64,000 bases of DNA from Candidatus Omnitrophota bacterium (GTDB lineage Bacteria > Omnitrophota > Gorgyraeia > Gygaellales > Profunditerraquicolaceae): contig JBAZTA010000001.1 in NCBI GenBank assembly GCA_041662125.1, positions 259,118 through 323,117 of the forward strand. Reading direction: 5' to 3'. The stretch's first letter is position 1; each line of letters starts with the position of its first letter. Below, piece after piece: positions 3,538-48,729 of this stretch. The notes below the pieces were generated by a model, which had not been told where the DNA came from, searched no databases, and saw only the letters and a program-made list of their open reading frames with translations. Both the position numbers and the translations under genes were made by a program.

Positions 3538-4701
3538 ATGGAAGAACTCCCTAAAGTAAAAGAAGAGCTCGAACGCACCAAAAACGAACTCACCATCCTC
3601 TATGAGATCTCCAATGCCATGAGGACCACCCTTAAACTTGATGAGATCCTCTACATCATTGTTACCGGAGTTACCGCGCATATCGGATTAGGTTTCAACC
3701 GGGCGTTGCTTTTCCTCGTCAATGAAAAAGAAAACCTTATCGAAGGAAAAATGGCGATCGGGCCGGAAAGCGGCGAAGAAGCAAACAGTATCTGGAGGTA
3801 TATCGAAGAGGAAAAGATGGATTTAGATGACCTCATCAACGCCTATAAATCAAGCCACCCCGCTCCGGAAACCGGTTTTAACCGTGAAATGAAACAACTC
3901 AGGTTTTCTTTAAATGACCAGAAAGAACGCCTCTTGACCATGGCGGTCCTGGAAGGGATGCCTTTACATCTCACTAAAGAATCTATCCAAAACTATAAAC
4001 AGGACCCTATTATTCAATTATTGAACACAGATGAACTTGTGGTCGTGCCATTACGGGCAAAAGATAAAATAAACGGAATTATCCTTGCTGACAACTGTAT
4101 TACCAAAAAACCTATCACCAAAGATAACCTCAGAATGCTTATTATGCTCTCAAACCAGGCTGGCCTGGCGATTGAAAATTCCCAGCTTTATGAAAAAGCA
4201 GTCATCCGCGCGCACTCTGATTCCCTGACAGAACTTTGGAACCACGGGTACTTCCAGTATCTGCTGGGGGTCGAAGTAGAAAAAGCAAAAGCAACCTCAA
4301 GTGCTTTTAGCCTTATCATGGTCGATATCGATGATTTTAAGATTTATAATGACATGCTCGGGCATCAGGCAGGAGACCTGATCTTAAAAGAATTAGCCTC
4401 CCTGCTTAAGAATCAATCACGAAAAATGGACCATGTCTGCCGTTACGGCGGTGAAGAATTTACCATTATCCTGCCGCAGACAGATAAAAAAGAAGCCTTC
4501 TTTATTGCAGAACGCCTGCGTGAAAATATCGAAAAGTATCCTTTTACCCATCGTGAAAAGCTGCCTAAGAAAAACCTCACCGCCAGTATCGGCCTTGCAA
4601 CATTCCCTGAAAACGGCGAGTCCGCACCTGAAATCCTTGCCTATTCCGATAAAGCCCTCTACGAAGCCAAGAAAAAAGGCAAAAATAACACCTGCGGGTA
4701 G
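3538..4701 (+). CDS. GAF-domain diguanylate cyclase (GGDEF, GGEEF active site with RxxD I-site)
   Basis: N-terminal GAF-like region followed by the RYGGEEF motif, with RKMD five residues upstream. Confidence 0.85.
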   Translation: MEELPKVKEELERTKNELTILYEISNAMRTTLKLDEILYIIVTGVTAHIGLGFNRALLFLVNEKENLIEGKMAIGPESGEEANSIWRYIEEEKMDLDDLINAYKSSHPAPETGFNREMKQLRFSLNDQKERLLTMAVLEGMPLHLTKESIQNYKQDPIIQLLNTDELVVVPLRAKDKINGIILADNCITKKPITKDNLRMLIMLSNQAGLAIENSQLYEKAVIRAHSDSLTELWNHGYFQYLLGVEVEKAKATSSAFSLIMVDIDDFKIYNDMLGHQAGDLILKELASLLKNQSRKMDHVCRYGGEEFTIILPQTDKKEAFFIAERLRENIEKYPFTHREKLPKKNLTASIGLATFPENGESAPEILAYSDKALYEAKKKGKNNTCG

Positions 4702-7700: not shown

Positions 7701-8117
7701 TGAATAACTTTCAGCTCCGATTCCTGTGCCCATCAAGAGGTCTAAAATATCTTTCAGGCGCGCAGTCGATTTATTTAAAAGGTATTCGCTCTCACCCGAC
7801 CTGAAGATCCTGCGGGTAATAACAACTTCTCTATGCTCTACCGGAAAAAATTTATTCTCATTATCAAACGTCAGGCTTACTTCAGCCATGCCCAGCGGCG
7901 GCTTGGAATCTGTCCCATTGAAAATAACGTCTTCCATCTGCGAGCCGCGCAGCGACTTAACCGACTGCTCGCCTAATACCCAGCGGATAGAATCAAAAAT
8001 ATTAGACTTTCCGCATCCATTAGGGCCGACAATAGCAGTTACCCCCGGCTCGAAATTGAGCGTGGTTTTTTCCATGAATGACTTAAACCCGACAAGTTCT
8101 AATTTTTTAAAATACAT
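4797..8117 (-). CDS. smc: Chromosome partition protein SMC
   Basis: N-terminal Walker A GPNGCGKSN, long coiled coils, a hinge, and a C-terminal LSGGEK signature with Walker B. Confidence 0.9.
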   Translation of the reverse strand: MYFKKLELVGFKSFMEKTTLNFEPGVTAIVGPNGCGKSNIFDSIRWVLGEQSVKSLRGSQMEDVIFNGTDSKPPLGMAEVSLTFDNENKFFPVEHREVVITRRIFRSGESEYLLNKSTARLKDILDLLMGTGIGAESYSLIAQGKIDLVLSSRPEDRRMVFDEAAGITRYKVQKKEALRRLEETEQNLLRVNDIISEVKRSIGYLERQANKARKYKEAFEILKAKEIKRALCQKKKLNKERDELLSQLTAFKNEEEALHHAIQESEGAIEARNQEARDLENKIAAIRNQVLSLENSLSHDEQHITFNQERLKEMEKAKAYLETQVEQTRARLLLDEEKLSKLKEEELTIRTHYEEKTILLREKEAQFNDLLVSTQAALETIAQAKAAIMDLAAKASLAKNDIIDVTSKKQVVLARSKRLDIEKAKVSEERAVIEGNLNSLDIELKQVQEVLQVLTLQEAQLSQALVQEKASLAQLHTDLENLERQKSALESHREFLEKLKTQYESIDTSLNAEIYLDQMPLEKITGLVIKVKDYCNGAQDGQQQDARFKLAGEAKPIDLDAVRVSEKIAQLEERLVELRNDKSAKEKHTQELAASIKEFEEKAQEQELALGNKNTFHQAALEQFNKVKEEEEIIALELSDVRNELLSLDEKSASCETHFAELDKLQKDQESLIHSHQEKVNANVAIKEEIVVVITKTKTELEALSRRLGTEDNTLKLLEDAYNHNKENILNLEKQIQDNLSRKSSLELESASLTEKIAQEQSDCVARRSSLDEEETRYGEISGSVRQLSEAIENQRKRIDVLKDTLYSLQMEEKDFDFKYMSIKERLLQVYKIDLDTAQVVPQEGVLQEQVSAENQQPVTEAKNLEPAMVDEQIDEIVLGQEIDSLKSKIDSYGTVNLVAIEEYDELKKRYDFLTQQQNDLATAKSSIQDAIHKINRTTRKMFLETFEKVAEEFRNYFRLLFNGGDAKVYLIDEQDPLESGIEIICRPPGKKLQNVLLLSGGEKSLSAIALIFAIFKVKPAPFCILDEIDAALDEANVDRFSRLFQDFTNTSQFIVITHNKRTIANAHVMYGITMVESGISKIVSVKFAADKPAAVKEENKEAVAA

Positions 8118-8207
8118 TGTCCTGCTCCTTTTGTATCCAGTATATAGTATATCGATATGAAAATTTTGTAAAGGTTATTTTCGACAATTCTTTCAACCTG
8201 CTTCAAT

Positions 8208-9557
8208 TTAAATTTTGGTTATCGTAAAATAATAAATATCGTTAAACGCGTCGCTCTCAACGCTCAAAGAAAACTTTTTGATCCCTGAATCATAAAACAA
8301 ATGCACCACCTCATCTTTACTGCGTTCCACAAACTTCCAATTACAGAACCAATCCGGAGACAGCAGAGAAAACGTTTTTTCTTTATTCTTATGGGTCAGG
8401 ATCAATTTCCCTTTTTCTTTCAGGCAGCCATAAAAATACTCAACGAACATTTTTAACGCCTTATCAGGAAGATAATCAATATACCCCAGGCTGTAAGCAA
8501 TATCCTGTTGTTCAAACAGGGGCAGCCCACCATCCTTGATAAGCCGTTTAATATCTTGATGAATAAAATTAAACTTCACGGACAAGGGGATATCCTTGAG
8601 AGCCTGTTTTGAAAATTCCAATGCCGCGGGATCCGCGTCCAAACAGCTCAAAAAAACATTTTTCCCGGTATATATTTCCCCTGGCAGTTCCCTGATCTCC
8701 CTGCAGGAACCACAAACAATATTTAATATTTTGATGCCGGGGGTCGGCGGCGCGTTATGAATCTGGTTTCCAATAAGTTCCCGCAGCTTATCTTTACGGT
8801 AGCGCACGGCAACCGCATAGGGGCTGTTCAAAAAATATTTATCGAAACACAAAGCAATACCGCCAGAGGCAAGCGGTTTATTATCGTATATAGTTTCCAG
8901 CATTTCAAAATCTCCGGGATACTCCCGCGGCTGTTCAAAAGCTTTTTTGAGTATCGGGCTTTTATACGCCCAGGTCCCGACTAAGAACCTAAAGAAATCC
9001 TTATTCTTTCCGGTAACACTTTCATTCTCAATGATCTCTTCCAAACAATACCCTTTAAGCAGGACCTGATTATTCAAATGGGTAAATGACGCTTCTATTT
9101 CAGGAGAATACGCCTCTTGCTTTGCCAGTTGCGCAATGAGCCTGCCGATTTCATTGGTGTATTCCAGCATATCCTTTAAAAAGAAACGCGTTATATCTTC
9201 TTTGGTTTTCTCATCGCTTACTTCATCAAGCAGGCTGCTGATCTGGGCCTTGATCAATGCTTTTCTAAGAGCTGCTTTTTGCGTTTCCTCCAGAGCAATG
9301 AACTCGACACCGTACGCGGAACCTCCGGAAAGGATATCGCGCTGCCAGACCAGGCGCGCGTCGCTTTTAAGTTCAAATTCCTTGCCGGGGAATTGGACAC
9401 GCAACGTGATCCGGGGGCTGGAAATAGTTTCCGTCGCATTAAAACTTAAACCCCCTTCGCTTATATTTGTTGCATCCGAAACCTGATCGGCGACACTCAA
9501 TTTCAAAGCTGTTTTAACACGGGGATGCGACCTTTTCTCATCCATACTCTTATTCAC
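8208..9557 (-). CDS. PilZ-domain protein fused to a class I SAM-dependent methyltransferase-like domain
   Basis: N-terminal PilZ motifs (RxxxR, then DATNISEGG). C-terminal MTase motif I ILNIVCGSC, post-I CLDAD and motif II-like QDIAYSLGYIDYL. GTG start after a GGAGGG SD. Confidence 0.6.
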   Translation of the reverse strand: MNKSMDEKRSHPRVKTALKLSVADQVSDATNISEGGLSFNATETISSPRITLRVQFPGKEFELKSDARLVWQRDILSGGSAYGVEFIALEETQKAALRKALIKAQISSLLDEVSDEKTKEDITRFFLKDMLEYTNEIGRLIAQLAKQEAYSPEIEASFTHLNNQVLLKGYCLEEIIENESVTGKNKDFFRFLVGTWAYKSPILKKAFEQPREYPGDFEMLETIYDNKPLASGGIALCFDKYFLNSPYAVAVRYRKDKLRELIGNQIHNAPPTPGIKILNIVCGSCREIRELPGEIYTGKNVFLSCLDADPAALEFSKQALKDIPLSVKFNFIHQDIKRLIKDGGLPLFEQQDIAYSLGYIDYLPDKALKMFVEYFYGCLKEKGKLILTHKNKEKTFSLLSPDWFCNWKFVERSKDEVVHLFYDSGIKKFSLSVESDAFNDIYYFTITKI

Positions 9558-9572
9558 CAGCCACCCTCCTCT

Positions 9573-9947
9573 TTAATCAAGGATCTTATGAACAATATCG
9601 AGGAATTTACGGTTATCAAACGGTTTATACATATACTCTTTCACCTTCAATTTCATGGCAGCTTCATATTTATCAATATCCGCGTACCCGGTGATCATGA
9701 TCTCAGGGACAGCCGGCTTACCCGCATGCTTACGGTATTCGCGGATCTTTTTTATCATTTCAACGCCATCCATACCCGGCATCCTGACATCAGTAATGAT
9801 CAGGTCAAAATCATCTTTTTTGATCACATCCAGCGCGTCTTCCCCGCTTTCAGCGACTTCCGCGATAAACCCTTGTTTTTGCAGTAATTTAACCAGCGTC
9901 TTTGAAACTAACGGCTCATCATCAACGATCAGGATATGTTTTGCCAT
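9573..9947 (-). CDS. Single-domain response regulator (CheY-like REC)
   Basis: ILIVDDEP and DLIITDVRMPGMDG phospho-acceptor motifs with a conserved K. No output domain. Confidence 0.85.
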   Translation of the reverse strand: MAKHILIVDDEPLVSKTLVKLLQKQGFIAEVAESGEDALDVIKKDDFDLIITDVRMPGMDGVEMIKKIREYRKHAGKPAVPEIMITGYADIDKYEAAMKLKVKEYMYKPFDNRKFLDIVHKILD

Positions 9948-9949
9948 AA

Positions 9950-10171
9950 TTAAACCACTCCTTTTTCCTGATATTTAGAGCTCATCTTCTGCTCCATCCA
10001 GGCATCAATTTTATCTTTCTGAAAACGCCACTGGCCCACCAATTTAAGCGCGGGGATCTTGTCATGTTTGAGCCAGTCATAAATCGTCCTGCGGCTGATT
10101 TTAAGATATTTCTTTAGATCATCGATCGTCATTAAAGACTCAATAGTATTCATCACATTTACCTCACTCAT
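9950..10171 (-). CDS. Excisionase/MerR-like HTH DNA-binding protein (helix_turn_helix_17-like)
   Basis: The MTIDDLKKYLKISRRTIYDWLKHDKIPALKLVGQWRF core. The ORF's N-terminal extension to 10285 lies inside the promoter, so the real start is taken as ATG 10171 (leaderless, at the TSS) or ATG 10153 (GAGGT SD). Confidence 0.6.
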   Translation of the reverse strand: MSEVNVMNTIESLMTIDDLKKYLKISRRTIYDWLKHDKIPALKLVGQWRFQKDKIDAWMEQKMSSKYQEKGVV

Positions 10172-10178
10172 GAACTTA

Positions 10179-10206
10179 ATTATATTACTAAATTTATACT
10201 TGTCAA
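10179..10206 (-). promoter_or_regulatory. Consensus sigma70 promoter (TTGACA, 16 nt spacer, TATAAT)
   Basis: Perfect -35 and -10 hexamers immediately upstream of the Xis-HTH / REC / PilZ-MTase operon. Confidence 0.6.
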
Positions 10207-10356
10207 TATAAATATATTCATTCTTATGCAGAAGTGTGCAAAATGAGCTTATTAGTGCTAAGATATGCAGATTTATGCAATACACCTCGCCTTAATTGAA
10301 AAGGCGAGTGTCTGCTTTCTGCAGTAGAAGGTCGCACCGCGGGTGTAAACAACAAT

Positions 10357-10408
10357 CAAGACCGGGTCTTGGCTGTAATAAAAAAATACCAGTTAAGACC
10401 CGGTCTTG
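10357..10408 (-). terminator. Long terminator hairpin built on the aagaccgggtctt palindrome
   Basis: About 18 bp stem (caagaccgggtcttggctg with cagttaagacccggtcttg) around an A-rich loop, downstream of the PilZ gene at 10473..10820. Confidence 0.5.
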
Positions 10409-10472
10409 AAATATGAACTATCGACTATGGACTACTTCTGTATTGTGATTTGTGTGATGAATGTGCAAAAGA

Positions 10473-10820
10473 CTAATATCGGGAGCGGACTTGGATGGAA
10501 CGCAGTATCAAGGGAATAGGCTTTAGTTCAGGGGCATCAAGAGCAACACCAATGCGATAACGGGCAGGCGCCAGACAATTATTCCAGACGACTTTACCAG
10601 TCGTAATGATCCTTTCTCCATTGTCGGGCATGCACAATTGCACGTCAACCGTCACTCCTGGGGCTAGTTGTTCTTTAGTTTCCAGCCCCATCCCTCTGTT
10701 GCTTATATCAAAGGTATTAACCCAGGCACCTTTTAATGAGCGGATCGTAAGGTACATGAGCGGTATCGCTACCGGAAACCTAGCGTAACTTCTTCTTTCT
10801 TTATTTTCCCATTCGGTCAT
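10473..10820 (-). CDS. Single-domain PilZ protein (c-di-GMP receptor-like)
   Basis: RRSYARFPV followed by DISNRGMG, which are the RxxxR and DxSxxG motifs. Confidence 0.75.
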   Translation of the reverse strand: MTEWENKERRSYARFPVAIPLMYLTIRSLKGAWVNTFDISNRGMGLETKEQLAPGVTVDVQLCMPDNGERIITTGKVVWNNCLAPARYRIGVALDAPELKPIPLILRSIQVRSRY

Positions 10821-10937
10821 AGTATGATTTTAAGTTTATAGATTTCTTAGAAATGGTTCGTCGCTTTAAATATACGCTACACAGCAATGAATTTCAAGGG
10901 TATTTTCAGGGTTTTTGAAAGCGCTTTCAAAATAAGA

Positions 10938-10976
10938 CAAAAAAAGCATAACTATTCTATTTACAATAAGTTATGC
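10938..10976 (-). terminator. Rho-independent terminator downstream of etfA
   Basis: An 8 bp stem (gcataact / agttatgc) followed by a T-run on the minus strand. A perfect 20 bp palindrome, ttttgaaagcgctttcaaaa, sits nearby at 10913..10932. Confidence 0.55.
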
Positions 10977-11002
10977 GTTTGTTCACAACCTTATATAACA
11001 AG

Positions 11003-12205
11003 CTATTTTTTAAGATTTTCTTTAAACTTTTTTGTTAACGCAGGCAGGATTTGAAAAATATCCCCGACAATCCCATAGGTAGCAACCTTGAAGATCGGAG
11101 CGTCAGGGTCTTTATTAATGGCAATAATGATCTTTGATGACTGCATACCGACTAAATGTTGTATCTGTCCGGAAATACCACAGGCAATATATATTTTCGG
11201 GGCAACCGTCCTGCCGGTCTGGCCTACCTGATGAGAATATGGCAGCCACCCGGAATCAACTGCCGCCCGCGATGCCCCAACAGCACCACCCAAAACATGG
11301 GCAAGTTCTTCCAAAAGCTTGAAATTCTCAGGCCCACCCATACCTCTTCCGCCAGATACGATAATATCAGCTTCAGCTATATTCACCAGGCTCTCAACTT
11401 CTTCCACGATATCCAGAAGTTTCGTGCGTGATACGTATAACGACGCCTCAAAATTTTCTTTTATAATCTTACCTTTTCGGTGTTTATCAGGAGCCATCGG
11501 CTGCATGACTTTGTGCCGCACGGTTGCCATCTGCGGGCGGTGATTCGGGCTTATAATGGTAGCCATGATGTTTCCGCCGAATGCCGGACGGGTCTGCAAC
11601 AATATCTTTTTCTGAGGGTCAATATCAAGGCCGGTGCAATCCGCGGTCAAGCCAGCGTCAACAGTAATAGCGACACGTGACACCAACGACCTGCCGATAG
11701 CGGTTGCCCCGCAAAGCACGACCTCAGGCTTATATTTTTCGACCAACTTGACTAAGATATTTGTATACGGTTCATCCTGGAAATTTGCCAATTCAGGGGC
11801 CTGGACCAAGTAAATATTATCCGCGCCATGCCAGATCAATTCATCAAGCTGGTCATCAAGCTCATTGCCGATCAATACGCCGCTTACCTGCGTATTGAGT
11901 TTCGCTGCCAATTCATGCGCTTTTCCCAAAAGCTCATACGCGACGGATTGGATCTTGCCGTTTTTCTGTTCGATAAAAACCCATACACCCTTATAATCTT
12001 TAATGTCAGGCAGCGCGCGCTTGCTTTGCGGCTTCTCTAAAAGTATTGCTTTAAATTTACACGCAGGCACACACGCTCCGCAAAGGGTACATGTATTCAA
12101 ATCTATCGATGCCTTTTTATCCATAATACGGATAGCGTCAAAAGGGCATACTTTCACGCACAAGGTACAACCGGTGCACTTTTCTAAGATAAGCTGTATC
12201 GGCAT
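11003..12205 (-). CDS. etfA: Electron transfer flavoprotein alpha subunit with N-terminal 2x[4Fe-4S] ferredoxin domain
   Basis: Two CxxCxxCxxxCP clusters in the first 60 aa, then an ETF-alpha FAD-binding domain. Confidence 0.85.
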   Translation of the reverse strand: MPIQLILEKCTGCTLCVKVCPFDAIRIMDKKASIDLNTCTLCGACVPACKFKAILLEKPQSKRALPDIKDYKGVWVFIEQKNGKIQSVAYELLGKAHELAAKLNTQVSGVLIGNELDDQLDELIWHGADNIYLVQAPELANFQDEPYTNILVKLVEKYKPEVVLCGATAIGRSLVSRVAITVDAGLTADCTGLDIDPQKKILLQTRPAFGGNIMATIISPNHRPQMATVRHKVMQPMAPDKHRKGKIIKENFEASLYVSRTKLLDIVEEVESLVNIAEADIIVSGGRGMGGPENFKLLEELAHVLGGAVGASRAAVDSGWLPYSHQVGQTGRTVAPKIYIACGISGQIQHLVGMQSSKIIIAINKDPDAPIFKVATYGIVGDIFQILPALTKKFKENLKK

Positions 12206-12206
12206 T

Positions 12207-12989
12207 TTAATTAACCTCGTTTTTTATTAAATCCACTAATTGCGTGGCTACGTCTAACGCCTCACCTTTAAGCATAACTCCGCCTGCCCGCTGAGCAGGT
12301 GTAAATATCTTCAACACTTGTGTCGGAGAACCGCATAACCCGATTTTCTGAGGGTCTAAATTAAGCTCTTTTTGCGTCAACACCGTGATTTTTGCAGACT
12401 TTGCCTTCATCATCCCTTTTAAAGATGGTAGGCGCGGCTCATTGATCTCTTTTACTACGGTCAAGAGTACGGGAAGCGGCGTTTCAATGACTTCATAACC
12501 TTCTTCCATCATGCGTTCAACCTTCATTTTATTTCCGGTAACTTCTTCGATCTTCTTCACGTAGGTAACCTGCGGGATATCTAAATGGGTGGAAATCCCG
12601 GGGCCGACCTGCGCGGTGTCTCCGTCAGAAGCCTGTTTGCCGCACAAAATAATATCGAATACACCTATTTTCTTTATGGCGCCTGCCAAGGTATAACTTG
12701 TCGCCCATGTGTCGCTTCCGGCGAACGCGCGGTCACAAACCAAAACCCCTTCATCTACACCCAACGATATCGCTTCCCGCAGCGCGGCTTCTGCCTGAGG
12801 AGGGCCCATGGTAACCACAGTTATTTTTCCGCCTAATTTTTCTTTCAGGCGCACACTTTCTTCAATCGCGTACATATCAAACGGATTTATGATCGCTTTT
12901 ACCCCTTCACGAATAAGGGTATTGGTTTCCGGATTAATTTTTACTTCAGTTGTTTCAGGGACCTGTTTGATACAAACAATGATATTCAT
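12207..12989 (-). CDS. etfB: Electron transfer flavoprotein beta subunit
   Basis: ETF-beta fold (MNIIVCIKQVPE...) immediately upstream of etfA. Confidence 0.85.
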   Translation of the reverse strand: MNIIVCIKQVPETTEVKINPETNTLIREGVKAIINPFDMYAIEESVRLKEKLGGKITVVTMGPPQAEAALREAISLGVDEGVLVCDRAFAGSDTWATSYTLAGAIKKIGVFDIILCGKQASDGDTAQVGPGISTHLDIPQVTYVKKIEEVTGNKMKVERMMEEGYEVIETPLPVLLTVVKEINEPRLPSLKGMMKAKSAKITVLTQKELNLDPQKIGLCGSPTQVLKIFTPAQRAGGVMLKGEALDVATQLVDLIKNEVN

Positions 12990-12994
12990 ATATC

Positions 12995-13360
12995 TTATAC
13001 CCCCAAATGTGACTGCATATAATCATCAAGCTTCTTAATATAGCCCTCTTGTATTGAAATAAACTCAGTTCCCACATCATAACGCACTCCGCTGGCAGGA
13101 TCCCCGATCACAAATTCCTTGACCCAGACGACTTTCGCAGTCGCGGTAATGGGAAGCTTCTCTCCCGGGAGAAATATCTTTAGATCAATAACATCAGATT
13201 CATTAAGTTTCTCATACCCGACAAAACAAATACCGCTTTTACTGATATTTCTGGTGCGTGTCAGGTTTTCTGAAGAAGCAATATCCTTTTTTGAGTAAGA
13301 AACATCAACCAGGATATTAAGCCGCGAAAACTTTCTGCGTTCTCCCCCGAGATCCATCAT
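12995..13360 (-). CDS. Single-domain PilZ protein embedded in the acd-etfBA operon
   Basis: RRKFSRLNI followed by TRNISKSGICF, between acd and etfB with intergenic gaps under 30 nt. Confidence 0.7.
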   Translation of the reverse strand: MMDLGGERRKFSRLNILVDVSYSKKDIASSENLTRTRNISKSGICFVGYEKLNESDVIDLKIFLPGEKLPITATAKVVWVKEFVIGDPASGVRYDVGTEFISIQEGYIKKLDDYMQSHLGV

Positions 13361-13388: not shown

Positions 13389-14540
13389 TTATTGAGCAAG
13401 TTCTTTAATGATCTTCAACGCGATGATATTACGCTGAATCTGGTTTGTCCCTTCATAAATCTGGGTGATCTTGGCGTCACGGACATATTTTTCAATAGGA
13501 TAGTCCTTCATATACCCGTATCCGCCGAATATCTGAAGGGCATCAACCGTCACCTTCATTGCCACATCCGAAGCATACATCTTAGCCATTGCCGATTCCT
13601 TAGAAACGTCTTTTATACCGGCATCAACCATTCTGGCAGCAGCATATACCAGGCCGCGGGCAGCTTCTATTTCAGTTGCCATATCCGCGATCATCCACTG
13701 GATCCCTTGAAAACTAGAGATCGATTTCCCAAACTGATGCCTCTCTTTAGCATACTTTACCGACAATTCTAACGCTCCCTGAGCGATCCCTAATGCCTGC
13801 GCGGCTACACCCGGACGGGACATATCAAACGTACGCATTGTCACAATAAACCCCATTCCTTCTTTTGCCAGAAGGTTTTCTTTCGGGATCTTACAATCGG
13901 TGAAAATAAGCTCACGCGTTGAAGACGCGCGAATACCGAATTTGTCCTCTTTTTTCCCGAAGGTAAAACCAGGAGTGCCTTTTTCCACGATAAACGCTGA
14001 AGCACCGCGCGCGCCTTTAGTCTTGTCAGTCATCGCTATCACAACATAGGTTTCAGCATCACCGCCATTGGTAATAAAATGCTTTAACCCGTTTAAAACA
14101 TAGTGTTTTCCTTCTAATCGTGCGGTTGTCTTGATCGCTGAAGCATCAGAACCTGCTTCCGGCTCAGTAATGCCAAACGCGGCAACTTTCTTTCCGCTGG
14201 CTAAATCCGGCAAATATTTCTTCTTCTGAGCATCATTACCAAAAAGGACTATAGGAAACGTCCCTAACGCTGAGGCAGCATAGCAAACCGCGATACCGCC
14301 GCAAGCACGCGATAATTCTTCGGTAGCGATGCATAAATTAAGTACCCCCACCCCCATCCCGCCGTATTCTTCCGGAATAAATAACCCGAATAAACCGCCC
14401 TCAGCGATAACTTTAATGACCTCCCAGGGATACTCCTCTGTCTGGTCATATTTTGCGGCTACCGGCCTTACTTTTTCATCGGAGATCCTACGCGCCAGGT
14501 CCCTTACCATTTTCTGTTCATCTGCAAATAAATAGTCCAT
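13389..14540 (-). CDS. Acyl-CoA dehydrogenase (short-chain, butyryl-CoA dehydrogenase type)
   Basis: ACAD family sequence with a catalytic Glu near the C-terminus (YEGTNQIQ). The start is trimmed to MDYLF, which has an AAGGAGG SD 7 nt upstream. Confidence 0.85.
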   Translation of the reverse strand: MDYLFADEQKMVRDLARRISDEKVRPVAAKYDQTEEYPWEVIKVIAEGGLFGLFIPEEYGGMGVGVLNLCIATEELSRACGGIAVCYAASALGTFPIVLFGNDAQKKKYLPDLASGKKVAAFGITEPEAGSDASAIKTTARLEGKHYVLNGLKHFITNGGDAETYVVIAMTDKTKGARGASAFIVEKGTPGFTFGKKEDKFGIRASSTRELIFTDCKIPKENLLAKEGMGFIVTMRTFDMSRPGVAAQALGIAQGALELSVKYAKERHQFGKSISSFQGIQWMIADMATEIEAARGLVYAAARMVDAGIKDVSKESAMAKMYASDVAMKVTVDALQIFGGYGYMKDYPIEKYVRDAKITQIYEGTNQIQRNIIALKIIKELAQ

Positions 14541-14554
14541 TTGTGAACCTCCTT

Positions 14555-14810
14555 GAGCACCAAAAAGCTTTATACAGCGAAACCCCGCAGAGTGCACAAA
14601 AGAATTTCGAAGAAATTCCTTGTGCGCTTACGAAGCGGGGTAGTTAACCTTTTACTTGAGCACCTTAAAGCTTTATTTAACGAAACCCAACCGAGTATGC
14701 GCAGAAAATTTCCAAAGGAAATTTTGCGCATGTTTACGAGGTGTGGGTTATTACCACATCTTTTCTATCTAGCGAAACTCCGCCACAGAAAATGGCGCAC
14801 TTGGCATTCA
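14555..14810 (-). promoter_or_regulatory. 5' leader of the acd/etf operon containing three tandem structured modules
   Basis: Two full and one partial tandem copies of an approximately 95 nt unit. Each has a near-perfect inner palindrome (tgcgcagaaaatttcc aaa ggaaattttgcgca) and a covarying outer stem. The first copy overlaps the acd RBS. Confidence 0.5.
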
Positions 14811-18164: not shown

Positions 18165-19187
18165 TTAGGTTTGAGATGTTACCCCTGTCGGTGAAACCAC
18201 AAGGGGTAATTGATGTTGATATTCTTTAGCGAATACTTTTTTAAAATTATCCTCGAAAGATTCTTTACTGTCCGAGACTTGCATTAAAGTAATTACCTTA
18301 GTAATTTGTTTATCAAGATGTGGATTACCTGTATCCACTGTTAAAAACTGAAAGTGACGATAGCGCCTATATCCTTTTTCAGTGACAGGATTACGTTTTC
18401 TCAATTCATCTAAAACTCCTGATGGTAATTGATCATAAATATACTTATTAATAAATTTTCCCACATATTGGGGTTTCTTAACTGTTTCAGCCCTATATTC
18501 CCAACTATGAATTTTATATATTTGTTTAAAAAACTCGTTTGGAAATGTCTTAACCCAAGGACGTAATTCTTCGGCTATATATGCCGCTAAAAGCCTTTGT
18601 AGTTCATTTTTTGCCCGGTCTTCTTGGTACCCAGTTGCTTCATCAACTAGAGCAATTATACCTACCTTAGCCAAACTCCTAACCAATATATCACATGCTA
18701 TTGCGATGTGTTTTTGATTAGGCTTAAGAGCCTTGGCATCTCTAGCTTCTAAGTAAACTTCACAAACCATAGGTAATAATTCTGCTTTAAATCCATAGGC
18801 TCTATTCCCTGTGGGGGTTCTAAAGGGAATAGGCATTGTCGACTGCCGTAAATCGTCTGAAATGAATGGGTTAAGATTATTAGAGGACAAAAAAGGAGGT
18901 AAGCCGTCGACCAGCGCAAAAGAACTTCCGGTGCTACCTCTAGCCTTTCTCGCACGGCCGATAGAAGCCATAAATGTTTCCTGTGTAAGAACCCTTGTTG
19001 TATTATCTAAAACTGCGCAAGCAATTTTTTTATTTCCGATTTGCATTTCCCCCATATGAGTAGCCCTAGGTATGTTAGTTGACCACCTTTTAATAGCGGC
19101 CTCCCTGGCTATTGCTTTTCTTTCTTCATGAGATAACTTAGTTGCCCTCGCCTGACCGCCCCTTGACTGCATTTCATTTTTTTCCAT
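18165..19187 (-). CDS. Phage-associated P63C-like domain protein
   Basis: A core (VGIIALVDEATGYQEDRAKNELQRLLAAYIAEELRPWVKTFPNEFFKQIYKIHSWEY) that I recall matching the P63C family. Basic N-terminal motif GGQARATKLSHEERKAIAREAAIKRW. The region is low-GC. The start is trimmed to MEKNEM, which has an AAGGGAGGG SD. Confidence 0.45.
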   Translation of the reverse strand: MEKNEMQSRGGQARATKLSHEERKAIAREAAIKRWSTNIPRATHMGEMQIGNKKIACAVLDNTTRVLTQETFMASIGRARKARGSTGSSFALVDGLPPFLSSNNLNPFISDDLRQSTMPIPFRTPTGNRAYGFKAELLPMVCEVYLEARDAKALKPNQKHIAIACDILVRSLAKVGIIALVDEATGYQEDRAKNELQRLLAAYIAEELRPWVKTFPNEFFKQIYKIHSWEYRAETVKKPQYVGKFINKYIYDQLPSGVLDELRKRNPVTEKGYRRYRHFQFLTVDTGNPHLDKQITKVITLMQVSDSKESFEDNFKKVFAKEYQHQLPLVVSPTGVTSQT

Positions 19188-19334
19188 AACAGCCCTCCCT
19201 TGGTTAAAATGCTTGCATCTGATATTATCAGCATACTTGCAAGCAAGCATTTTGTCAAGTAAAATTATTCTAAATAATTAAAAAATAGCTTTTAGGGGAA
19301 TTACTAAACCAGCGAGATTTTGCTGCTTTTACAG

Positions 19335-36924: not shown

Positions 36925-39900
36925 TTACAGCTTTGCTAACGCTAACTGGCGGGAATCAAGTATCACCAGTGTTTCCCGAAGCGCAGCAGAACTTTCAGCC
37001 ACATCTTCTTCCTGCAAGCGGCAAATTTCAGCAAGGCAGACGACCAGATCATCTCTTCTCGACTGCAATTCACCTTTTTGAGAACACGCAGCTACCAATT
37101 CCTTAAGGCGTTCTCCCGAAGGCACTATACCGCTGGCAACCATGTTCTTGATCTGGCCAATTTCAACATCAAGGTTGATATTCGCCAATTCTCCCTTACT
37201 TAATAGCGGGAGCTTTAAATTAAGCCCTTCGAAACTTCCCATAGGCTTGGTAATAATATTCATCGTCCGGAAATCAATACCACCTTTTTTTATAGGAGAA
37301 CCTGCTGCCCGAACGTCCTGATTGACCAGAGGAGAAGAACCGCTATTTTCCAATGTCGCTAATAACGCTTGCAGCTCTTTTGCGGCACCACTGAAAGCTC
37401 CCTTAATTGTATCTTTCATTGCGGGATCATCTACGACAATTTGTTCAAATTGCTTTGCCTTAGCTTCTATAGCGCTTTTCAATATCGAAATATCAGCAGC
37501 GCTGAACACCTGCCCAGATATCTTTTCTATTGGTGCTTCCTGGCTGCCTGATTCACGCATTTTCAAATCTCGCAATAAGCTATGGTAAAAAGAATAGAGA
37601 TTGGTCTGACGGTTTAAATACGCATCAGTGACTTGCGAGAACCATTGACCCGCTATTTTCTGCACTGTTGACAAACCACTTAAAACAACGTCTTTATACC
37701 CATCTTTAAGTTCCAATAATTGCTCGCCGATTTCATGCACCTTTTGGCGCACTTTATCAGCACTCGGAATCGTCTTTCCAATAGCTTCCGTATAAAGACG
37801 GACCACAGGCTCTGTCCCGGAGAAACGGATACACAACCATGAACCATCGGTAAAGACTATCTTGTAGCCGTCAGCAAAAATAGATTCGGCTATTTTCTTT
37901 CCCCCAAGCTCTGTTATTGTTTTTGCCTCAAGGTTTTCCTTTAATTCATCCAACTGCGCCTTCAGCTGCGCTTTCAAATCATCAATTTTATCAAGCGATG
38001 TTTTAGCCCTTAAATCAACTCCGCCTCTGTTATACGCAAAGAAGCCGATCTCTGCTTGTAATTTCCCAGCCAACTGCTCGGGAGTAGCTTGAGAAACTGC
38101 ATTGATCTCAACCATCTTAAAGCCGGCGACTAAAGCATCTTTTTCCAATACAACATACTTCGGATCTTTCTCCTGGCTCTTAATATTGAGGCCTTGCGAC
38201 TCCTCACCTGCGATAAGCGCAGGGGTTTTGGAATCAGCCAAGAGGTACTGATTGAACCATTTAAAACCAACCTTGGTCACATACAACGGACAGGACCAAC
38301 GGTCAGCAATAGCCTTCATCATATGAGACGTAGGTATCGTGGTAGCAAGGGCGATATTCTCTTCATTGACGAATTTCTGGATCAAAGGTATAAGCCTTTT
38401 ATAAACAGAATCTTTGTCAATAAAAGAATCCAGGTCGTTGATAGCTACACCGGATTTAGCCAACAAAGCAGCAACATCTTCCCTGCCTTGGTTATTGGTG
38501 AGCCATTGAATAAACCTTTGCTGAATAAGATACTGTGCCTCAATGGCAAAGGTCATATTGGGATCGATAAAATTACCTTCGGCAGACACAACGCCATTTC
38601 TGTCGGCATCGGGATCAGCAGAGATGGCAATCGCCTTTTTCCCTTGCGACCTTAACTCATTAACACGATACACTAAATGCTTTGAATATTCTGCTGCCGG
38701 CTCAGGCCTGTCAGGTTTCGTTACACCTGTTTCAGGGTCCCATTGCGAGAAGCTCGGATCAGGCTCAGCGTTAATGATCTCATACTGTACCCCCTCCTTT
38801 AACCCAATAGCATTCATAATGGCCCGGTAATATTCAGTAGCTGAGCCGTGCTTTGGATCTATAACAACGTAATCGAGCACTCCTTTTTCGAATGCCGTAG
38901 CTATTGCCTTAAAATCAATTATTTCCTGTAATGCCTCGATATAGAGAGGCGCTACTTTGTCCATGCTCATGGCCGTAATATTGCGTCCATGGCGGTTTTG
39001 ATCAAACGGATTATCGTGCTTTGATTCCCGCAATGTATTGATATTCTTCTGCAAAGGCCCGGTGATCTCCTCTTCCGCAGGCCCTGAATGCGCGGGATTA
39101 AACTTCAGGCCATTATTATTGATTTCAACAACCGACCCATCGTCTTTGGTGATCTGATAACCGCGGCCGGGGTTATGAGAAGCGGTAAAATAAAGTGAAC
39201 CCGCTGTCTTAAGCCTGCCGATCAATACCGAAACAACCGGTAAAGGACAATAATGATCGACGAAATAAACTTCAATCCCCAGCGACGCGAGTTTCTCGGC
39301 CGCTAACCTGCTGAGGTCCAAATTGGTATACGGACCGGTTGCACGAGTATCGCCGCTGATAAGTACGCCTTTTCTTCCCGGATTTCCTGCCTCTTGCAGG
39401 CGGATCTGATCAGCAGCAGCAGTTACAGTCGCGTAGAAATCGTTCAAGAACCATTCCTGCATGAACACGCCGTCTTTCATATACTGGCTTTCATCAAAAC
39501 GCCATCCCGAAGTACCGAACTTAATGGGATTCTTCGTGACGAATTCAGAATATGAAGTAATAGACGATGAGCTAAACCGGGGTACTAAAGGCTTATCCCC
39601 ATCATCTTCAGAAGTGATCACTGCTGTGCCCGCTTGCGCTGATGCAACAGAACCACTTAAGAACTTCTGAACCTGCGCAAAGAATTGCTGCATATCACTG
39701 ACAGCTCCATCCGTAGTCGCATCCGCAGTAATAAGAACCGCTTTACGGTTACTCGCAACCAATGCTTTGACCGTGCCGATGGTTTGCGCTTTGATTAGAT
39801 TCTCTGAATATTCAAGAGCGCTCGGCTGATCTACCTGCATAGGCATAAAATAGGTTGATAAGAACATTTCTCTTCCTGCTTCTATGTTTTGATGGAAAGA

Positions 39901-42900
39901 GTGGTTCTTATCAGGGCCTTCGCCTAATTTAGCCGCCATTTTTAAACCATTAGTAAAGATATCATACCGGGCAGCTTCTAATACTTCCCGTAACCCGGCA
40001 GTCATTCTTCCGTAGGACATAAGCTCAAGCGCCTCAAAACCCGGCTTGCTCTTGAGGATAGTAATAATTGCCGCATAAACTGCCGGCGCATTATTGAGAT
40101 CAGCCCCCAACCTCTCCAACTCAGCATTCAACTCTCTTTCACCGATATGATGAGTGGCCAGAAGCGGGCCATAATATACCTTCAAAGTATTAAATTGCGA
40201 ATACTTCCATTCAGCCGGAACAGAAACCTTTTCTCCCGGAGCTACCTTAGCCATTACTTCACGAGTCCCCTTTTTATACCCTTCTACCGCCGGCTGATCA
40301 ACAAAACAGATATCCCACAAATATGCGATCGAGGCCACTGTTCTTTGAAAACCAAGCATTATACCGCCGATAGAATCTTTATCTTCGACATTAATGTCAA
40401 ACAGAGGGTAATTATTATCTTTAAGATAAGCACCCAACTCAGAATTTGTTTCCTCACCCTTAAAGTTTATACGGACAAATACGCGGTCATTGGTATCAGC
40501 CGGCAATAAATTCTCGGAGCTTAACTTCTCCCCGTAAAAAAGCGTCACACCTTTCCCGTCTTTACCCAATGACTCTTCAAATAACTGTTCTGCCCAGATA
40601 GAAATATCCTTCATCTCCTCAGGAACGATCAAGGTCATTTTATCTTTGCGTTCGTTCTTAGCGTAAGAGTAGAGGAATGCGGCAAGTTTAAGGAACATAT
40701 CGCCGTTTTCACCCTGATTCATCTTTTTGGCAGTACTTAAAACCTGCCAGACTTTTTCCGGAGCAACTAACGCCATCGGCAGGAGGAATATATTTGTCGT
40801 CGGTGCGGTAAACCGTCCGCCGATATCTCCTTTTCCATTGAGTTGAATTTCTCTCTGATTATAATCCCCGGTATCCATAGGTGAGCCTTTATCAGTGACA
40901 ACCCACATGTGATCTTTTGCATCTAAACCGGATTGGCCGAAAAGTGTTTCAAAATACCTTTTATGAGAAACTGTTTCTTCGGTAGTCCCGGATTTACTAA
41001 TAGGAATAACCAAAGTCTTAGCAAGAGCATTTTCCAATGAACCTTCTTTAGCGGCTATCTCATTAAGCATATCAGCGATAACTGCAGGATCAGTGGTCCT
41101 GAGGCTGTAAATCTTTACTTCCCGTTCGCCAAAGGTTGTTTTTACTGTTTGCACTGATAATCCTGAACCACCCATGCCGCAAAAGATCACATAGGTATAT
41201 TTATTACGAATTGCCTCGGCGTCTTCTAAAACAGCATTGACTGCTTGAGGATTCTCAAACAACCAGTTCAGATTCATCATACCCCAACCTAAACGGTTTG
41301 CTTTACCGTCAAAACCAATTCTGGCAAAAGTCGGATCTAATTTTATTGCGTCCTCTTGAGACAAACCATAGAGTGAATTTAAGCGTGCTTCGGCTCGTTC
41401 ACGTAACAATTTATCAAAAGATTCTTTGATCACTGTTTCATTTACGATATTCAACGGTGAAGCAGCAGAAACAACACTGCGTGCATCCAAATACGCCTGC
41501 CGAGCTAACGCCGCAGGAACAATGATCAAAGATTTATCCCCATCCTGGTCGTTCGCTAAAGAAGCATCCATAAGCGCATATTTTAATCCTACGACATCTC
41601 CAGCAGTAACAATAAATGTATCATTAACATAGAAGCTTTTTTGCTTGCGAGACAAAGTTTGATGAATATTAACGATCCCTAACCCTGCCTCTTTTGCCCT
41701 GACAATACGGGCATCATTTTCATTAACATCATCGGTGATAACCACTTTCTTTACACCGGCAAGCTTGAGAGCCTCTGCGGTAATATCAGAGGTATATGCT
41801 CCCGGCTTATTAGAAGAAAGCTGATCTATCGATACTGCCAGCTCCATGCCTTTCGGCAGGGACTCTTTGCTCAGATCCAAAAGATCAACCGGATTCTCAC
41901 CTTTTAACGCGCGATCAAAGAGTATCATATCAGTATCGTTAACCGCGAAGAAGATACGGATATCATTTTCCAGGTCAATACCTTGAAGGTTATTATTAAC
42001 GAACACGGCAAAATCCATGAGTTCGCGTAAATACTCTACTTTCATCTTCTCCCCGCCCACTTCAGCTTTCAAATTAAAGCCTAATACCGGGATACGGCCG
42101 GAAAATGTCCCGGCAGCTTTTTGGTTGCGGACAGTTTCAACTATAGTCTTGATCAAAGTTAATGCTGCTTCTTTAGTTAATGAAGCTCCTCCGATAAGCC
42201 CGCCGTCGACATTGACCATCGCCATAAGATCAGCGGCAGTCTTTGCGCTCATACTTCCACCGTATTGAATAATTATTTTATCTGCTTCACCAGGAATGAT
42301 CTGAGAAAGTATCTCATTTCTAATGAACGCCTGCACCTCATCAGCTTCTGATGATTTTGCCGGACGTATGGCTTTCGGGCCGATAGCCCAGATCGGTTCA
42401 TACGCAATGATGGTCATTAAGATCTGCTCTCTGGTAAGGCCGGCTAAACCTTCAGTAACTTGCGCGCGGATAAAATCCCATCCCGCTTTAGTAAGATCAC
42501 CATTGGCATCACGCATGTTTGCCGGTTCTCCCATTGCCAAAACATTGATCGTATTAAAAACATCATGTGATTGAGACAAAAGCGCATTGACTTTATTATT
42601 GTCTAAATTATATGCTTCTCTGGTTTCAGAGTGGCCGGTTAAAGCGCCATCCGCGCCTAACGACCTAAGCAAGACCAAATCCGATTTGTCATTCGCCTGC
42701 ACCATTAAGCGTACAGGACGATATTGGCCGTCTTTCTTGGTCCATTCTCCTTGAAGAGGCGAGCCTGCGGATAGAGACTGGGCTTTGGTAACTTCAAAAT
42801 GCTCCTTCGCAGATAGATAGACCGCATTCATGATCGCGTCTTCTGTCTTCTGATCAAGCATGTTCATCAGTTCCTGGTCATATCCCCTGACTTTCTTATC

Positions 42901-47222: not shown

Positions 47223-48695
47223 TTATAAGATTAATCGCGCGTTTTTCTTTAACGGGTGGCTTTGGATATCCGCCACGATCTCTTCAGAGATTCCCGGTTT
47301 ACCCAGCTTATAATACATATAATTTTTATACCCCTCGACTCCCGGCTGGTCAAAGGCGTTGACATTCAACAACTCTCCCTCAAAAGCAGTCGCCATTTCA
47401 AAGAAAAACAAAAGCGCTCCCCAATGATATGCGGATACTTCAGGCATAATGATCGCGCAATTCGGCCGTGATTCCCTGACCAGCGCCCAGGCCGTTGCCT
47501 CCTGCGCTAATGCCATCAATTCAGAAAGCTTTTTCCCCGACAAAATATCCCCTTTTACCGCAATCGTCATGTCACGCTTAAATTTCTCTGTCCGGATAAA
47601 GGTGACCACCTTATCATGCTCGCCTTCAATATTGTTCTGCTGAATAGAATGTAAATCATTGGTTCCCCGGCAGGACACCGGCGTTCTGCCGACATTAACG
47701 ACCTGGCCTTTATCGCGCAGCCAATCTTCCGACCCATCAGCTGCTGTCACGATCTTTCTGGCGAATTTCTTCCCTAAGCTTTCTGCCAACAATTGCACAT
47801 ACCAGTCAGCAGTAGACTTGAGCGTCTCAGAAAAAGGCATCATAACCGCCAGTGACTTTCCTTTTTTACGGTAAAGGATAGCATGCAGCAAAGCGTACAT
47901 ATACGCGGGATTCTTATAGACATCTTTATTACTACAGCGTTTTTCCATCGCTTTCATCCCATCAAAGACTTTTTGGATATCAACGCCAATAATAGCCAAA
48001 TGCAAGAGCCCCATATTAAATTCTGAAAACCTACCTCCGACTCCCGGCAATAACGGCAGATTCCTGAAACTCAAAGGGTCTTTCTTTTGTTCTTCGGTAA
48101 TTTTCTTGCGTAAACTTCCTGATTGCGGATCGGTAACCGCTACGATCTGCCTGCCATAGTTTTTCCCCACCGCTTTCTTAAGCCACTGTTCTACGATCAT
48201 AAACGCAGCCTTTGTTTCAGCGGTCTCCCCCGATTTTGATATCACCACCACAAACGTTTTCTTTGGGTTGAGATTCTTTAAAAGCACTGATAACGTGTCC
48301 GGATCAAGGTTATTTCCTTCGAAATAAATACGGGGGCGCTTATTGCGAACAGGGCTGAATTCATTATAATACGGGGCGCATAAGGCATCCTGAGCAGCTT
48401 TGACCCCCAAATATGAACCGCCGATACCTAATGAAATGATACAATCATACTTCTTAACGATCTGGGCGCTTATTTTCTTAATACCGTTGATCACCTCTTT
48501 ATCCTGATACTGCAATTGCGTCCATTCCAGGCCGAACTTTACCCGCATCCCTTTATCGGCAATAACCTTTTGCAAATGCTGGGCTGCCGCATTGATATCC
48601 TGATCCATGGCAGCAATATCGTTTTCTGTTACACCGTGCGTTTCGGTAACATTGGCACTAAACATATTATTAAAATCAAACCTGATTTCTTCCAT
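47223..48695 (-). CDS. pgi: Glucose-6-phosphate isomerase (canonical cytoplasmic copy)
   Basis: Motifs SLGIGGSYLG, ISKSGETAET, GVGGRFS and FDQPGVEGYK. The start is trimmed to MEEIRFDF. The full ORF runs to 48764. Confidence 0.85.
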   Translation of the reverse strand: MEEIRFDFNNMFSANVTETHGVTENDIAAMDQDINAAAQHLQKVIADKGMRVKFGLEWTQLQYQDKEVINGIKKISAQIVKKYDCIISLGIGGSYLGVKAAQDALCAPYYNEFSPVRNKRPRIYFEGNNLDPDTLSVLLKNLNPKKTFVVVISKSGETAETKAAFMIVEQWLKKAVGKNYGRQIVAVTDPQSGSLRKKITEEQKKDPLSFRNLPLLPGVGGRFSEFNMGLLHLAIIGVDIQKVFDGMKAMEKRCSNKDVYKNPAYMYALLHAILYRKKGKSLAVMMPFSETLKSTADWYVQLLAESLGKKFARKIVTAADGSEDWLRDKGQVVNVGRTPVSCRGTNDLHSIQQNNIEGEHDKVVTFIRTEKFKRDMTIAVKGDILSGKKLSELMALAQEATAWALVRESRPNCAIIMPEVSAYHWGALLFFFEMATAFEGELLNVNAFDQPGVEGYKNYMYYKLGKPGISEEIVADIQSHPLKKNARLIL

Positions 48696-48729
48696 CACAA
48701 GCTCCCTTTTTTCATTATTATGAGACAGC

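Follow-up and report, generated by a model that had tools for sequence, protein, structure and literature searches.

The main targets of the effectors described for cyclic diguanylate (c-di-GMP) are polysaccharide synthases, motors, secretion ATPases and transcription factors. In a structural survey of PilZ domains and a 2025 review of c-di-GMP effectors, a methyltransferase is named only as CheR1, the target on which MapZ acts in trans. In Ralstonia, the gene for the quorum-signal synthase PhcB (methyl 3-hydroxymyristate/palmitate synthase) is found in the order phcB-phcS-phcR(-phcQ) (PMC8578825, PMC6989110), and PhcQ, a receiver (REC)-only protein, influences signal synthesis (PMC6989110). 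Here we describe a three-gene operon of a Candidatus Omnitrophota bacterium located in a 64,000-nucleotide (nt) stretch of contig JBAZTA010000001.1 (assembly GCA_041662125.1, positions 259,118 to 323,117); this whole stretch is referred to as the window. The operon encodes a small helix-turn-helix (HTH) protein, a receiver-only response regulator and a 449-amino-acid (aa) protein in which a PilZ domain is followed by a domain resembling S-adenosylmethionine (SAM)-dependent methyltransferases. We consider it probable that the 449-aa protein is a conserved two-input enzyme, with a c-di-GMP-binding PilZ domain joined to a PhcB-like/Methyltransf_20-like small-molecule methyltransferase and paired with a receiver and a kinase. 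The genes and the predicted domains of the last protein are as follows.

9950 to 10171, minus strand: HTH_17 gene, 73 aa from ATG 10171 (or 9950 to 10153, 67 aa from ATG 10153)
9573 to 9947, minus strand: receiver-only response regulator gene, 124 aa
8208 to 9557, minus strand: PilZ-methyltransferase fusion gene, 449 aa, GTG start with AGGAGG 7 nt upstream
9222 to 9539, minus strand: canonical PilZ domain (aa 7-112), beta-barrel at aa 13-86 and C-terminal helix at aa 91-112
8754 to 9212, minus strand: all-helical cap, a putative substrate-binding subdomain (aa 116-268), from the helices of the AlphaFold2 model
8211 to 8735, minus strand: Rossmann-type SAM-methyltransferase core (aa 275-449), from strand/helix alternation in the AlphaFold2 model, Foldseek and conservation

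Fold and conservation of the PilZ-methyltransferase protein

A search of 5.8 billion proteins returned a total of 216 homologues of the 449-aa protein at 41-85% identity. Nearly all of the 120 homologues listed were about 450 aa in length, covered the full query and derived from independent assemblies. The homologues with names were from Candidatus Omnitrophota (almost all of the family), and a scan of one genome per species yielded 23 loci, 20 of them labelled Omnitrophota. The ratio of nonsynonymous to synonymous substitutions (dN/dS) was 0.13 over the whole PilZ-methyltransferase gene relative to an 84%-identical orthologue, with neighbouring housekeeping genes at 0.03-0.09; the gene is under purifying selection. 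An earlier note on this DNA, made from the letters alone, had read the last gene as a PilZ-methyltransferase fusion and had pointed to a frameshift or assembly artefact as one danger to that reading. The fusion was confirmed by the full-length homologues and by the AlphaFold2 fold described below. Both an artefact of this kind and a gene decaying after kinase loss were rejected, because the fusion recurs full length in independent assemblies with its motifs conserved, the open reading frame (ORF) is intact and dN/dS is 0.13.

The N-terminal domain is predicted to be of the canonical c-di-GMP-binding type. Pfam PilZ (PF07238) matched residues 7-100 with 33.5 bits (cut-off 22.5), and the protein was found to carry both PilZ motifs, R9-S-H-P-R13 (RxxxR) and N31-I-S33-E-G-G36 ([D/N]hSxxG). 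When 41 family sequences were aligned, R9, R13, D/N31 and G36 were each present in 41 of 41 and S33 in 36 of 41. An AlphaFold2 model, run on the family alignment, comprised a PilZ barrel followed by a helical cap and then a Rossmann core, with a predicted local distance difference test (pLDDT) score of 86.6 and a predicted TM-score of 0.83. The PilZ part of this model had strands within aa 13-86 and a helix at 91-112 (pLDDT ~73-89), the canonical layout. Such a domain architecture suggests that the attached methyltransferase is gated by c-di-GMP.

For the remainder of the protein, a Foldseek search of the PDB at E<=1e-3 gave 975 matches, and the best 50 listed were almost all methyltransferases. 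The top match was 3ocj, an uncharacterised Bordetella protein (E 8e-12, target TM 0.61), followed by SgvM/MppJ (SgvM ~1e-10), CurJ (3e-9), the C-methyltransferase domains of citrinin polyketide synthase (PKS) and many natural-product O-methyltransferases. Thus, the class I, SAM-binding fold that the earlier note had proposed, with AlphaFold as its suggested check, is predicted by the model. The combination of helical cap and Rossmann core is a layout typical of small-molecule methyltransferases.

The motifs by which the methyltransferase part had originally been recognized (ILNIVCGSC, CLDAD and QDIAYSLGYIDYL) were found in the translation. Core motifs include motif I, ILNIVCGSCRE (C282, G283, R286 and E287), D307 at the end of strand 2, IDYLPD (D361) and THKN (H389). 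Across the 41 sequences, R286, E287, D307, D361 and H389 were each conserved in 41/41, C282 in 40/41 and G283 in 38/41. The motif I pattern is I-A/V-C-G-S-C-R-E, in which the first glycine is replaced by alanine or valine, the second (G283) is retained and the third is replaced by cysteine. In the cap, K168, R190, K199, D216, Y224, D239 and K255 were invariant. The substrate is probably anionic, because K168, R190, K199, K255 and R412 are invariant. Several homologues, unlike the window protein, exceeded a Pfam methyltransferase gathering score; those above the Methyltransf_20 cut-off of 21 were P0157 (32.9), P0162 (28.2) and paralogues at related loci L002 (24.6) and L026 (23.9). Searches of PDB sequences with the protein and with the 41-sequence profile returned nothing below E 0.1, the best match being histamine N-methyltransferase at E 0.17.

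The family is broad. A cap-plus-Rossmann profile compared to 1.84 billion cluster representatives (clustered at 50% identity) gave 4749 matches at E<=1e-3, a number that includes PilZ-less relatives, and 488 at E<=1e-30. Judged by the lengths of the proteins and by scanning ten representatives with Pfam, the architectures include the methyltransferase alone (~350 aa), PilZ-methyltransferase (~450 aa), PilZ-PilZ-methyltransferase, X-PilZ-methyltransferase and REC-PilZ-methyltransferase. Many distant relatives bear the Joint Genome Institute (JGI) orthology name for PhcB. When the methyltransferase profile was aligned by hhalign to one of these (P0316, 477 aa), the probability was 99.6% (E 6.5e-24, 259 columns, identity ~23%), and the blocks KPxGYxGDY, ACGxxxE, LDxxxExL and GLxDYLxD were common to both. 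The cap region of the window family aligned to that of the PhcB-labelled proteins, and an AlphaFold model of the P0316 group likewise had 3ocj as its top PDB match. The P0316-group gene precedes a membrane hybrid histidine kinase and then a REC+HATPase protein, an order that matches the published phcB-phcS-phcR layout (PMC8578825, PMC6989110). Taken together, these comparisons make membership of the PhcB family a strong lead. A profile search of a word-indexed database with the methyltransferase part returned only the same family, a distant Pseudomonadota relative used as a bridge returned PhcB-labelled proteins with no named Ralstonia PhcB among them, and little taxonomy was obtained from cluster look-ups. 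The earlier note had allowed a protein, a small molecule or a nucleic acid as substrate; fold and homology to the PhcB-labelled proteins favour a small molecule and disfavour the other two.

The N-terminal regions of the two groups were also compared. No similarity was detected by hhalign between the PilZ profile and the N-terminus of the PhcB-labelled group. AlphaFold2 placed six strands and a helix in residues 1-121 of the P0316 group (A6), in an order and position like those of the window PilZ, at a pLDDT of 40-57 that is too low to use, and the c-di-GMP motifs were absent from this region. The P0316-group N-terminus may be a degenerate PilZ-like barrel.

Partner genes and their rearrangement

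Neighbouring genes at 32 related loci were pooled and identified by phmmer, yielding 30 unique family genes, 28 of which had upstream DNA. A receiver-only gene lay directly upstream in 20/28, often overlapping or a few bases apart, and a HisKA_7TM(-GAF) histidine kinase gene was found within 1 kb in 20/30. The window receiver fits this pattern: it was matched by Pfam Response_reg with 101.7 bits (3.4e-29), has no output domain and, as read from its translation, retains D9, D10, D53, T86 and K108. Paralogues that lack PilZ have the same receiver and kinase partners (e.g., at L006), so the link to the receiver is a property of the methyltransferase core, to which PilZ brings a further input. The receiver was also found joined to the enzyme in a single gene (P0155, 587 aa, RFSPR and DISETG motifs intact), on two independent contigs.

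L033 1482-3245 and L034 1154-2917: REC-PilZ-methyltransferase fusion gene behind an HTH_17 gene

This pair of genes is the three-gene operon of the window collapsed to two, and the fusion provides strong evidence, at the level of sequence, that the receiver acts on the enzyme. A contiguous, promoter-led HTH-REC-PilZ-methyltransferase unit was present in L002 (58% identity) and in L033, and the unit is thus a recurrent functional one. The conservation of gene neighbourhood in related genomes, which the earlier note had asked about, was therefore observed both as the receiver upstream and as the recurring unit.

The first gene of the operon encodes a protein of excisionase/MerR-like fold, with Pfam HTH_17 at 58.2 bits (cut-off 27, 1e-15) and TIGR01764 'excise' at 46.8 bits (cut-off 28.8); an HTH_17 gene is likewise the first gene in L002, L007, L011 and L033/L034. 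The earlier description of this protein as a Xis-type HTH stands for the fold and falls for an excisionase role: no integrase was detected among the flanking genes examined (PilZ, ETF, acyl-CoA dehydrogenase, SMC, GGDEF, RecA and HtrA, syntenic in L007), and for this reason the protein is regarded as a small regulator, not an excisionase. It is probably the operon's own transcriptional regulator. A MADS defence-system assignment was considered and rejected. The HTH protein scored 62.1 bits for mad1 in NCBIfam (cut-off 80) and 36.5 bits in PADLOC, in which the PilZ-methyltransferase and the stand-alone PilZ protein had no match; the response regulator matched other systems there only weakly, by its receiver domain, and none of these was MADS. 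No other MADS component was found among the flanking genes examined.

The window module was compared to that of a sister locus, L007, whose PilZ-methyltransferase is 84% identical. The two are syntenic, with genes for PilZ, electron-transfer flavoprotein (ETF)-beta, ETF-alpha and PilZ upstream and for SMC, GGDEF, RecA and HtrA downstream. The gene order in L007 is HTH, a first receiver (RR1), aldehyde dehydrogenase, 7TM-GAF kinase, a second receiver (RR2), PilZ-methyltransferase and a third receiver (RR3). Two junctions were located in the window.

9926 to 9932, minus strand: approximate recombination junction within the receiver gene (three-way DNA alignment; blastn of window versus L007)
8207, minus strand: second deletion junction relative to L007, at which window 8207 aligns to both L007 9357 and 9713

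The window receiver gene was found to be a chimera of paralogues, its first ~21 nt matching RR1 and its remainder RR2. Absent from the window were ~4.2 kb comprising the body of RR1, the aldehyde dehydrogenase gene, the 7TM-GAF histidine kinase gene and the head of RR2 (L007 3418-7984), as well as the 119-aa receiver gene RR3 (L007 9368-9727) that lies between the PilZ-methyltransferase and SMC genes. RR1 and RR2 have diverged from one another more than the window has from L007, and thus the receiver duplication predates the split. The window module was most likely reduced by deletion via recombination between receiver paralogues, with recombinational insertion in L007 a less likely origin of the difference that retains some weight. 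The kinase is present at loci L010 and L011 as well (both ~85% identical to the window). Modules of this kind appear to be reshuffled when receiver paralogues recombine.

Some loci add a REC-ketoacyl-synthase gene, accompanied by acyl carrier protein (ACP) and another methyltransferase paralogue, or genes for aldehyde dehydrogenase, phosphopantetheine-binding proteins or an HD-GYP phosphodiesterase; these extra neighbours are a hint that chemistry on acyl groups or lipids, and turnover of c-di-GMP, may be involved. Individual loci are described here in their own right. At L001 (217-3414, on a contig shared with L017), a single protein (535 aa) combines a receiver domain with a complete beta-ketoacyl synthase, which is an unusual output for a response regulator; it is followed by an ACP and by a 452-aa methyltransferase paralogue with no Pfam match, and two 7TM-GAF kinases flank the set. 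At L004 (9642-11200) and L013 (9567-11147), a second kinase-receiver pair lies directly downstream of the PilZ-methyltransferase gene, followed at L004 by a GAF-HD-GYP protein of the c-di-GMP phosphodiesterase type. The latter arrangement suggests local c-di-GMP turnover inside the module.

A probable two-input enzyme and its alternatives

Two signalling inputs probably control one methylation reaction in this system. In the mechanism that we propose, a kinase would phosphorylate the receiver protein, and the phosphorylated receiver would dock on the methyltransferase core. Binding of c-di-GMP to PilZ would independently reposition the cap or active site by way of the C-terminal helix that runs into the cap. 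Both signals would then switch the SAM-dependent methylation of a small substrate that is probably anionic and derived from a lipid or acyl group. Sources of c-di-GMP may include the GAF-GGDEF protein encoded nearby (3538-4701), and the HTH_17 protein would regulate the operon.

Several points weigh against a two-input enzyme of this kind. Binding of c-di-GMP, binding of SAM and catalysis by the PilZ-methyltransferase are all predictions. Motif I has a cysteine (CGSC) in place of the usual third glycine, and the Pfam methyltransferase scores of the window protein are sub-threshold (Methyltransf_25, 21.5 with a threshold of 27; Methyltransf_20, PF12147, 18.1 with a threshold of 21). The link to PhcB is drawn from JGI orthology labels and locus layout, not from Ralstonia PhcB itself. 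Lipid-type neighbours (the REC-ketoacyl synthase fusion, ACP and aldehyde dehydrogenase) occur in some loci only. Finally, no histidine kinase is encoded within the 64-kb window, so a kinase gene located elsewhere must be the source of any input by phosphorylation.

A narrower form of the two-input reading is that the product of the enzyme is a methylated lipid that diffuses as a signal, much as PhcB produces methyl esters of 3-hydroxy fatty acids, and is sensed by the neighbouring 7TM-GAF kinase, in a Phc-like quorum circuit gated by c-di-GMP; this is attractive, yet we regard it as unlikely. Homology to the PhcB-labelled methyltransferases argues for it, as do the locus logic of methyltransferase, membrane kinase and REC protein common to both systems (PMC8578825) and the precedent of PhcQ (PMC6989110). 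Ketoacyl synthase, ACP and aldehyde dehydrogenase genes at some loci, together with tandem paralogous kinase-REC-methyltransferase sets in L001, L002, L020 and L026, are also consistent with a signal synthase. Arguing against it, the homology is to proteins labelled PhcB, not to authentic PhcB, and the JGI label is broadly given to distant proteins; the kinase sensors differ (HisKA_7TM-GAF here versus MASE8 at the PhcB-like locus); and the window copy has no kinase, with no LysR/PhcA-type regulator seen. To our knowledge, no chemistry is known for Omnitrophota, which also weighs against this alternative. The wider proposition that Omnitrophota run Phc-like cell-cell signalling, in which a PhcB-type methyltransferase makes a methylated lipid signal, a 7TM-GAF kinase and receivers sense it and c-di-GMP gates the synthase, is in our estimation unlikely. 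If such a circuit exists, it would for the first time couple c-di-GMP directly, through an enzyme, to the synthesis of an autoinducer, and the effectors of c-di-GMP would gain a new class.

A CheR-like adaptation enzyme of the two-component pathway, controlled by c-di-GMP and methylating a signalling protein such as the kinase or the receiver, is distinctly unlikely. The tight linkage to kinase and receiver genes would suit such an enzyme, and PilZ proteins are known to act in trans on a methyltransferase (MapZ on CheR1) and on a kinase (HapZ on SagS). Weak, sub-threshold CheR Pfam matches were detected in distant relatives, and NTMT1/NRMT and PPM1 were among the fold matches. CheR was, however, absent from the best 50 fold matches, most of which were small-molecule and polyketide methyltransferases that have a helical cap; the protein N-terminal methyltransferases matched over ~240 columns that span the Rossmann core alone; and the closest sequence relatives are labelled as fatty-acid methyl-ester synthase.

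More improbable still is a catalytically dead domain that serves as a SAM/S-adenosylhomocysteine sensor or scaffold, so that the protein would be a c-di-GMP adaptor for a two-component system. The departure of motif I (CGSC) from GxGxG and the sub-threshold Pfam scores could be taken in this sense, and single-domain PilZ adaptors on kinases are known (HapZ). Loss of catalysis is at odds with the invariance of D307, D361, H389, R286, E287, K168, R190, K199, D216, Y224, D239, K255 and R412 across 41-85% identity and with a dN/dS of 0.13 across the entire gene, and the motif I variant is common to the PhcB-labelled relatives (ACGPAQE). A frameshift artefact that joins two genes, or a Xis- or MADS-type cassette of a mobile element or defence island, is highly improbable, as the excisionase fold and mad1 match of the HTH protein are countered by a fusion kept in hundreds of independent assemblies, a methyltransferase with no PADLOC match, and SMC, RecA, ETF, acyl-CoA dehydrogenase and GGDEF neighbours that are syntenic in L007, with no integrase among the flanking genes examined. 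The two-input small-molecule methyltransferase is thus the reading that we carry forward.

Transcription, surrounding genes and described systems

The operon and its surroundings include the following sites and genes.

10179 to 10206, minus strand: sigma-70-type promoter, -35 TTGACA at 10206-10201, 16-nt spacer, -10 TATAAT at 10184-10179
10225 to 10280, minus strand: two copies of a 17-nt direct repeat, TTGCAyAnnTCTGCATA, at 10225-10241 and 10264-10280
10356 to 10409, minus strand: twin GC-rich palindromes with T-runs (terminator-like sites 10371-10357 and 10404-10388; inverted repeat I1)
10473 to 10820, minus strand: stand-alone PilZ protein (115 aa, RSYAR and DISNRG motifs; Pfam PilZ 1.2e-9), directly upstream of the operon
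3538 to 4701, plus strand: GAF-GGDEF diguanylate cyclase (Pfam GGDEF 5.4e-46, plus GAF), syntenic in L007

The tight linkage of the three genes that the earlier note had reported was exact in its coordinates, with gaps of 2 nt between the HTH and receiver genes (9948-9949) and 15 nt between the receiver and PilZ-methyltransferase genes (9558-9572). Its perfect promoter upstream of the HTH gene was also found: TTGACA-16-TATAAT was the sole 12/12 match in a promoter scan of both strands of 7900-11100, and it was base-for-base identical at L007, where the DNA flanking it is ~82-85% identical. The further statement that this promoter abuts a leaderless ATG was correct as to distance, with the first ATG (10171) lying 7 nt past the -10 hexamer such that a leaderless transcript is possible. 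A leaderless start nonetheless appears doubtful from the DNA, as the second in-frame ATG (10153) is preceded by a GAGG Shine-Dalgarno sequence 8 nt upstream and the L007 HTH start is called at its equivalent (67 aa). Leaders of related operons (L002 and L033) are 25-47 nt. A repeat search revealed the two 17-nt direct repeats just upstream of the -35 hexamer (82% identity, 39-nt spacing), in a region (10225 to 10280) conserved at L007; they may be a candidate operator for the HTH_17 protein. The twin palindromes probably terminate the upstream stand-alone PilZ gene, which would make the operon a separate unit of transcription.

The GAF-GGDEF protein is a likely local source of c-di-GMP. Two stand-alone PilZ genes (10473-10820 and 12995-13360, both minus strand) flank the ETF-alpha/ETF-beta genes (11003-12989), and an acyl-CoA dehydrogenase gene (13389-14597) adjoins this block in an arrangement conserved in L007, which suggests c-di-GMP input to electron-transfer flavoprotein or fatty-acid oxidation. 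Farther away, a single ORF of 2791 aa (36925-45300, minus strand) was found to combine class-II fructose-bisphosphate aldolase (aa 517-777), triosephosphate isomerase (aa 877-1052) and phosphoglucomutase, with all four phosphoglucomutase domains (aa 1927-2506) in frame and long stretches that have no Pfam match. This giant multi-enzyme fusion of sugar metabolism is unusual; a PGI-like gene lies near it (47223-48764). A 361-aa protein with a P63C domain, otherwise found mainly in phage and mobile-element proteins, is encoded at 18165-19250 (minus strand).

Full-text literature searches revealed no described PilZ-methyltransferase fusion and only regulation in trans (MapZ-CheR1), in agreement with the earlier suggestion that a c-di-GMP-gated methyltransferase is not a described effector class. 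Searches on PF12147/Methyltransf_20 returned nothing, and those on Omnitrophota with c-di-GMP returned nothing relevant. The architecture is unstudied rather than unseen, with hundreds of members present in databases under generic names. Through a PilZ domain placed within a small-molecule methyltransferase that uses SAM, the outputs of c-di-GMP would come to include methylation, and the PhcB-related core with its kinase/receiver pair could tie the second messenger directly to the making of a signal outside the cell or in the membrane. The REC-PilZ-methyltransferase fusions and the shuffling of paralogues represent a natural experiment in adding signalling inputs to an enzyme. Omnitrophota are largely uncultivated, often ultra-small and possibly host-dependent, and we know of almost no experimental genetics in this group; the protein is soluble and of ~50 kDa, and the hypothesis is thus directly testable in vitro.

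Among described systems, the best structural likeness to the cap-plus-Rossmann part is provided by 3ocj (annotated as 'possible exported protein' of Bordetella parapertussis, function uncharacterised), the alpha-keto-acid C-methyltransferases SgvM/MppJ and the C-methyltransferases of CurJ and other PKS, from which the window protein differs in sequence (9-16% identity) and in possessing PilZ. MapZ-CheR1 and HapZ-SagS of Pseudomonas aeruginosa resemble the present system in that c-di-GMP acts by way of PilZ on a methyltransferase or a kinase, respectively. By contrast to these separate proteins that act in trans, with CheR1 a protein-glutamate methyltransferase, PilZ and a small-molecule-methyltransferase-like fold are here combined in one polypeptide.

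The phcBSRQ system of Ralstonia is similar in having a membrane histidine kinase and REC proteins devoid of DNA-binding domains alongside the methyltransferase (PMC8578825), and the cap-plus-Rossmann core is homologous to JGI PhcB-labelled proteins (hhalign, 99.6%). The PhcB-labelled group differs in its N-terminus of ~200 aa, which lacks sequence similarity to PilZ, compared to the canonical PilZ found here; the phc kinase is of another sensor type, and no PhcA-type regulator was seen. A canonical barrel, the RxxxR and [D/N]hSxxG motifs and a C-terminal helix in contact with the output domain are common to the 449-aa protein and to known PilZ-fused effectors (BcsA cellulose synthase, Alg44, PilZ chemoreceptors and the Pkn1 kinase). 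They would also be expected to work alike, with c-di-GMP in allosteric control of the attached activity. What sets the Omnitrophota protein apart from these effectors is that its predicted output is a SAM-dependent methyltransferase, its PilZ domain is N-terminal, and it is cytoplasmic and paired with a receiver protein.

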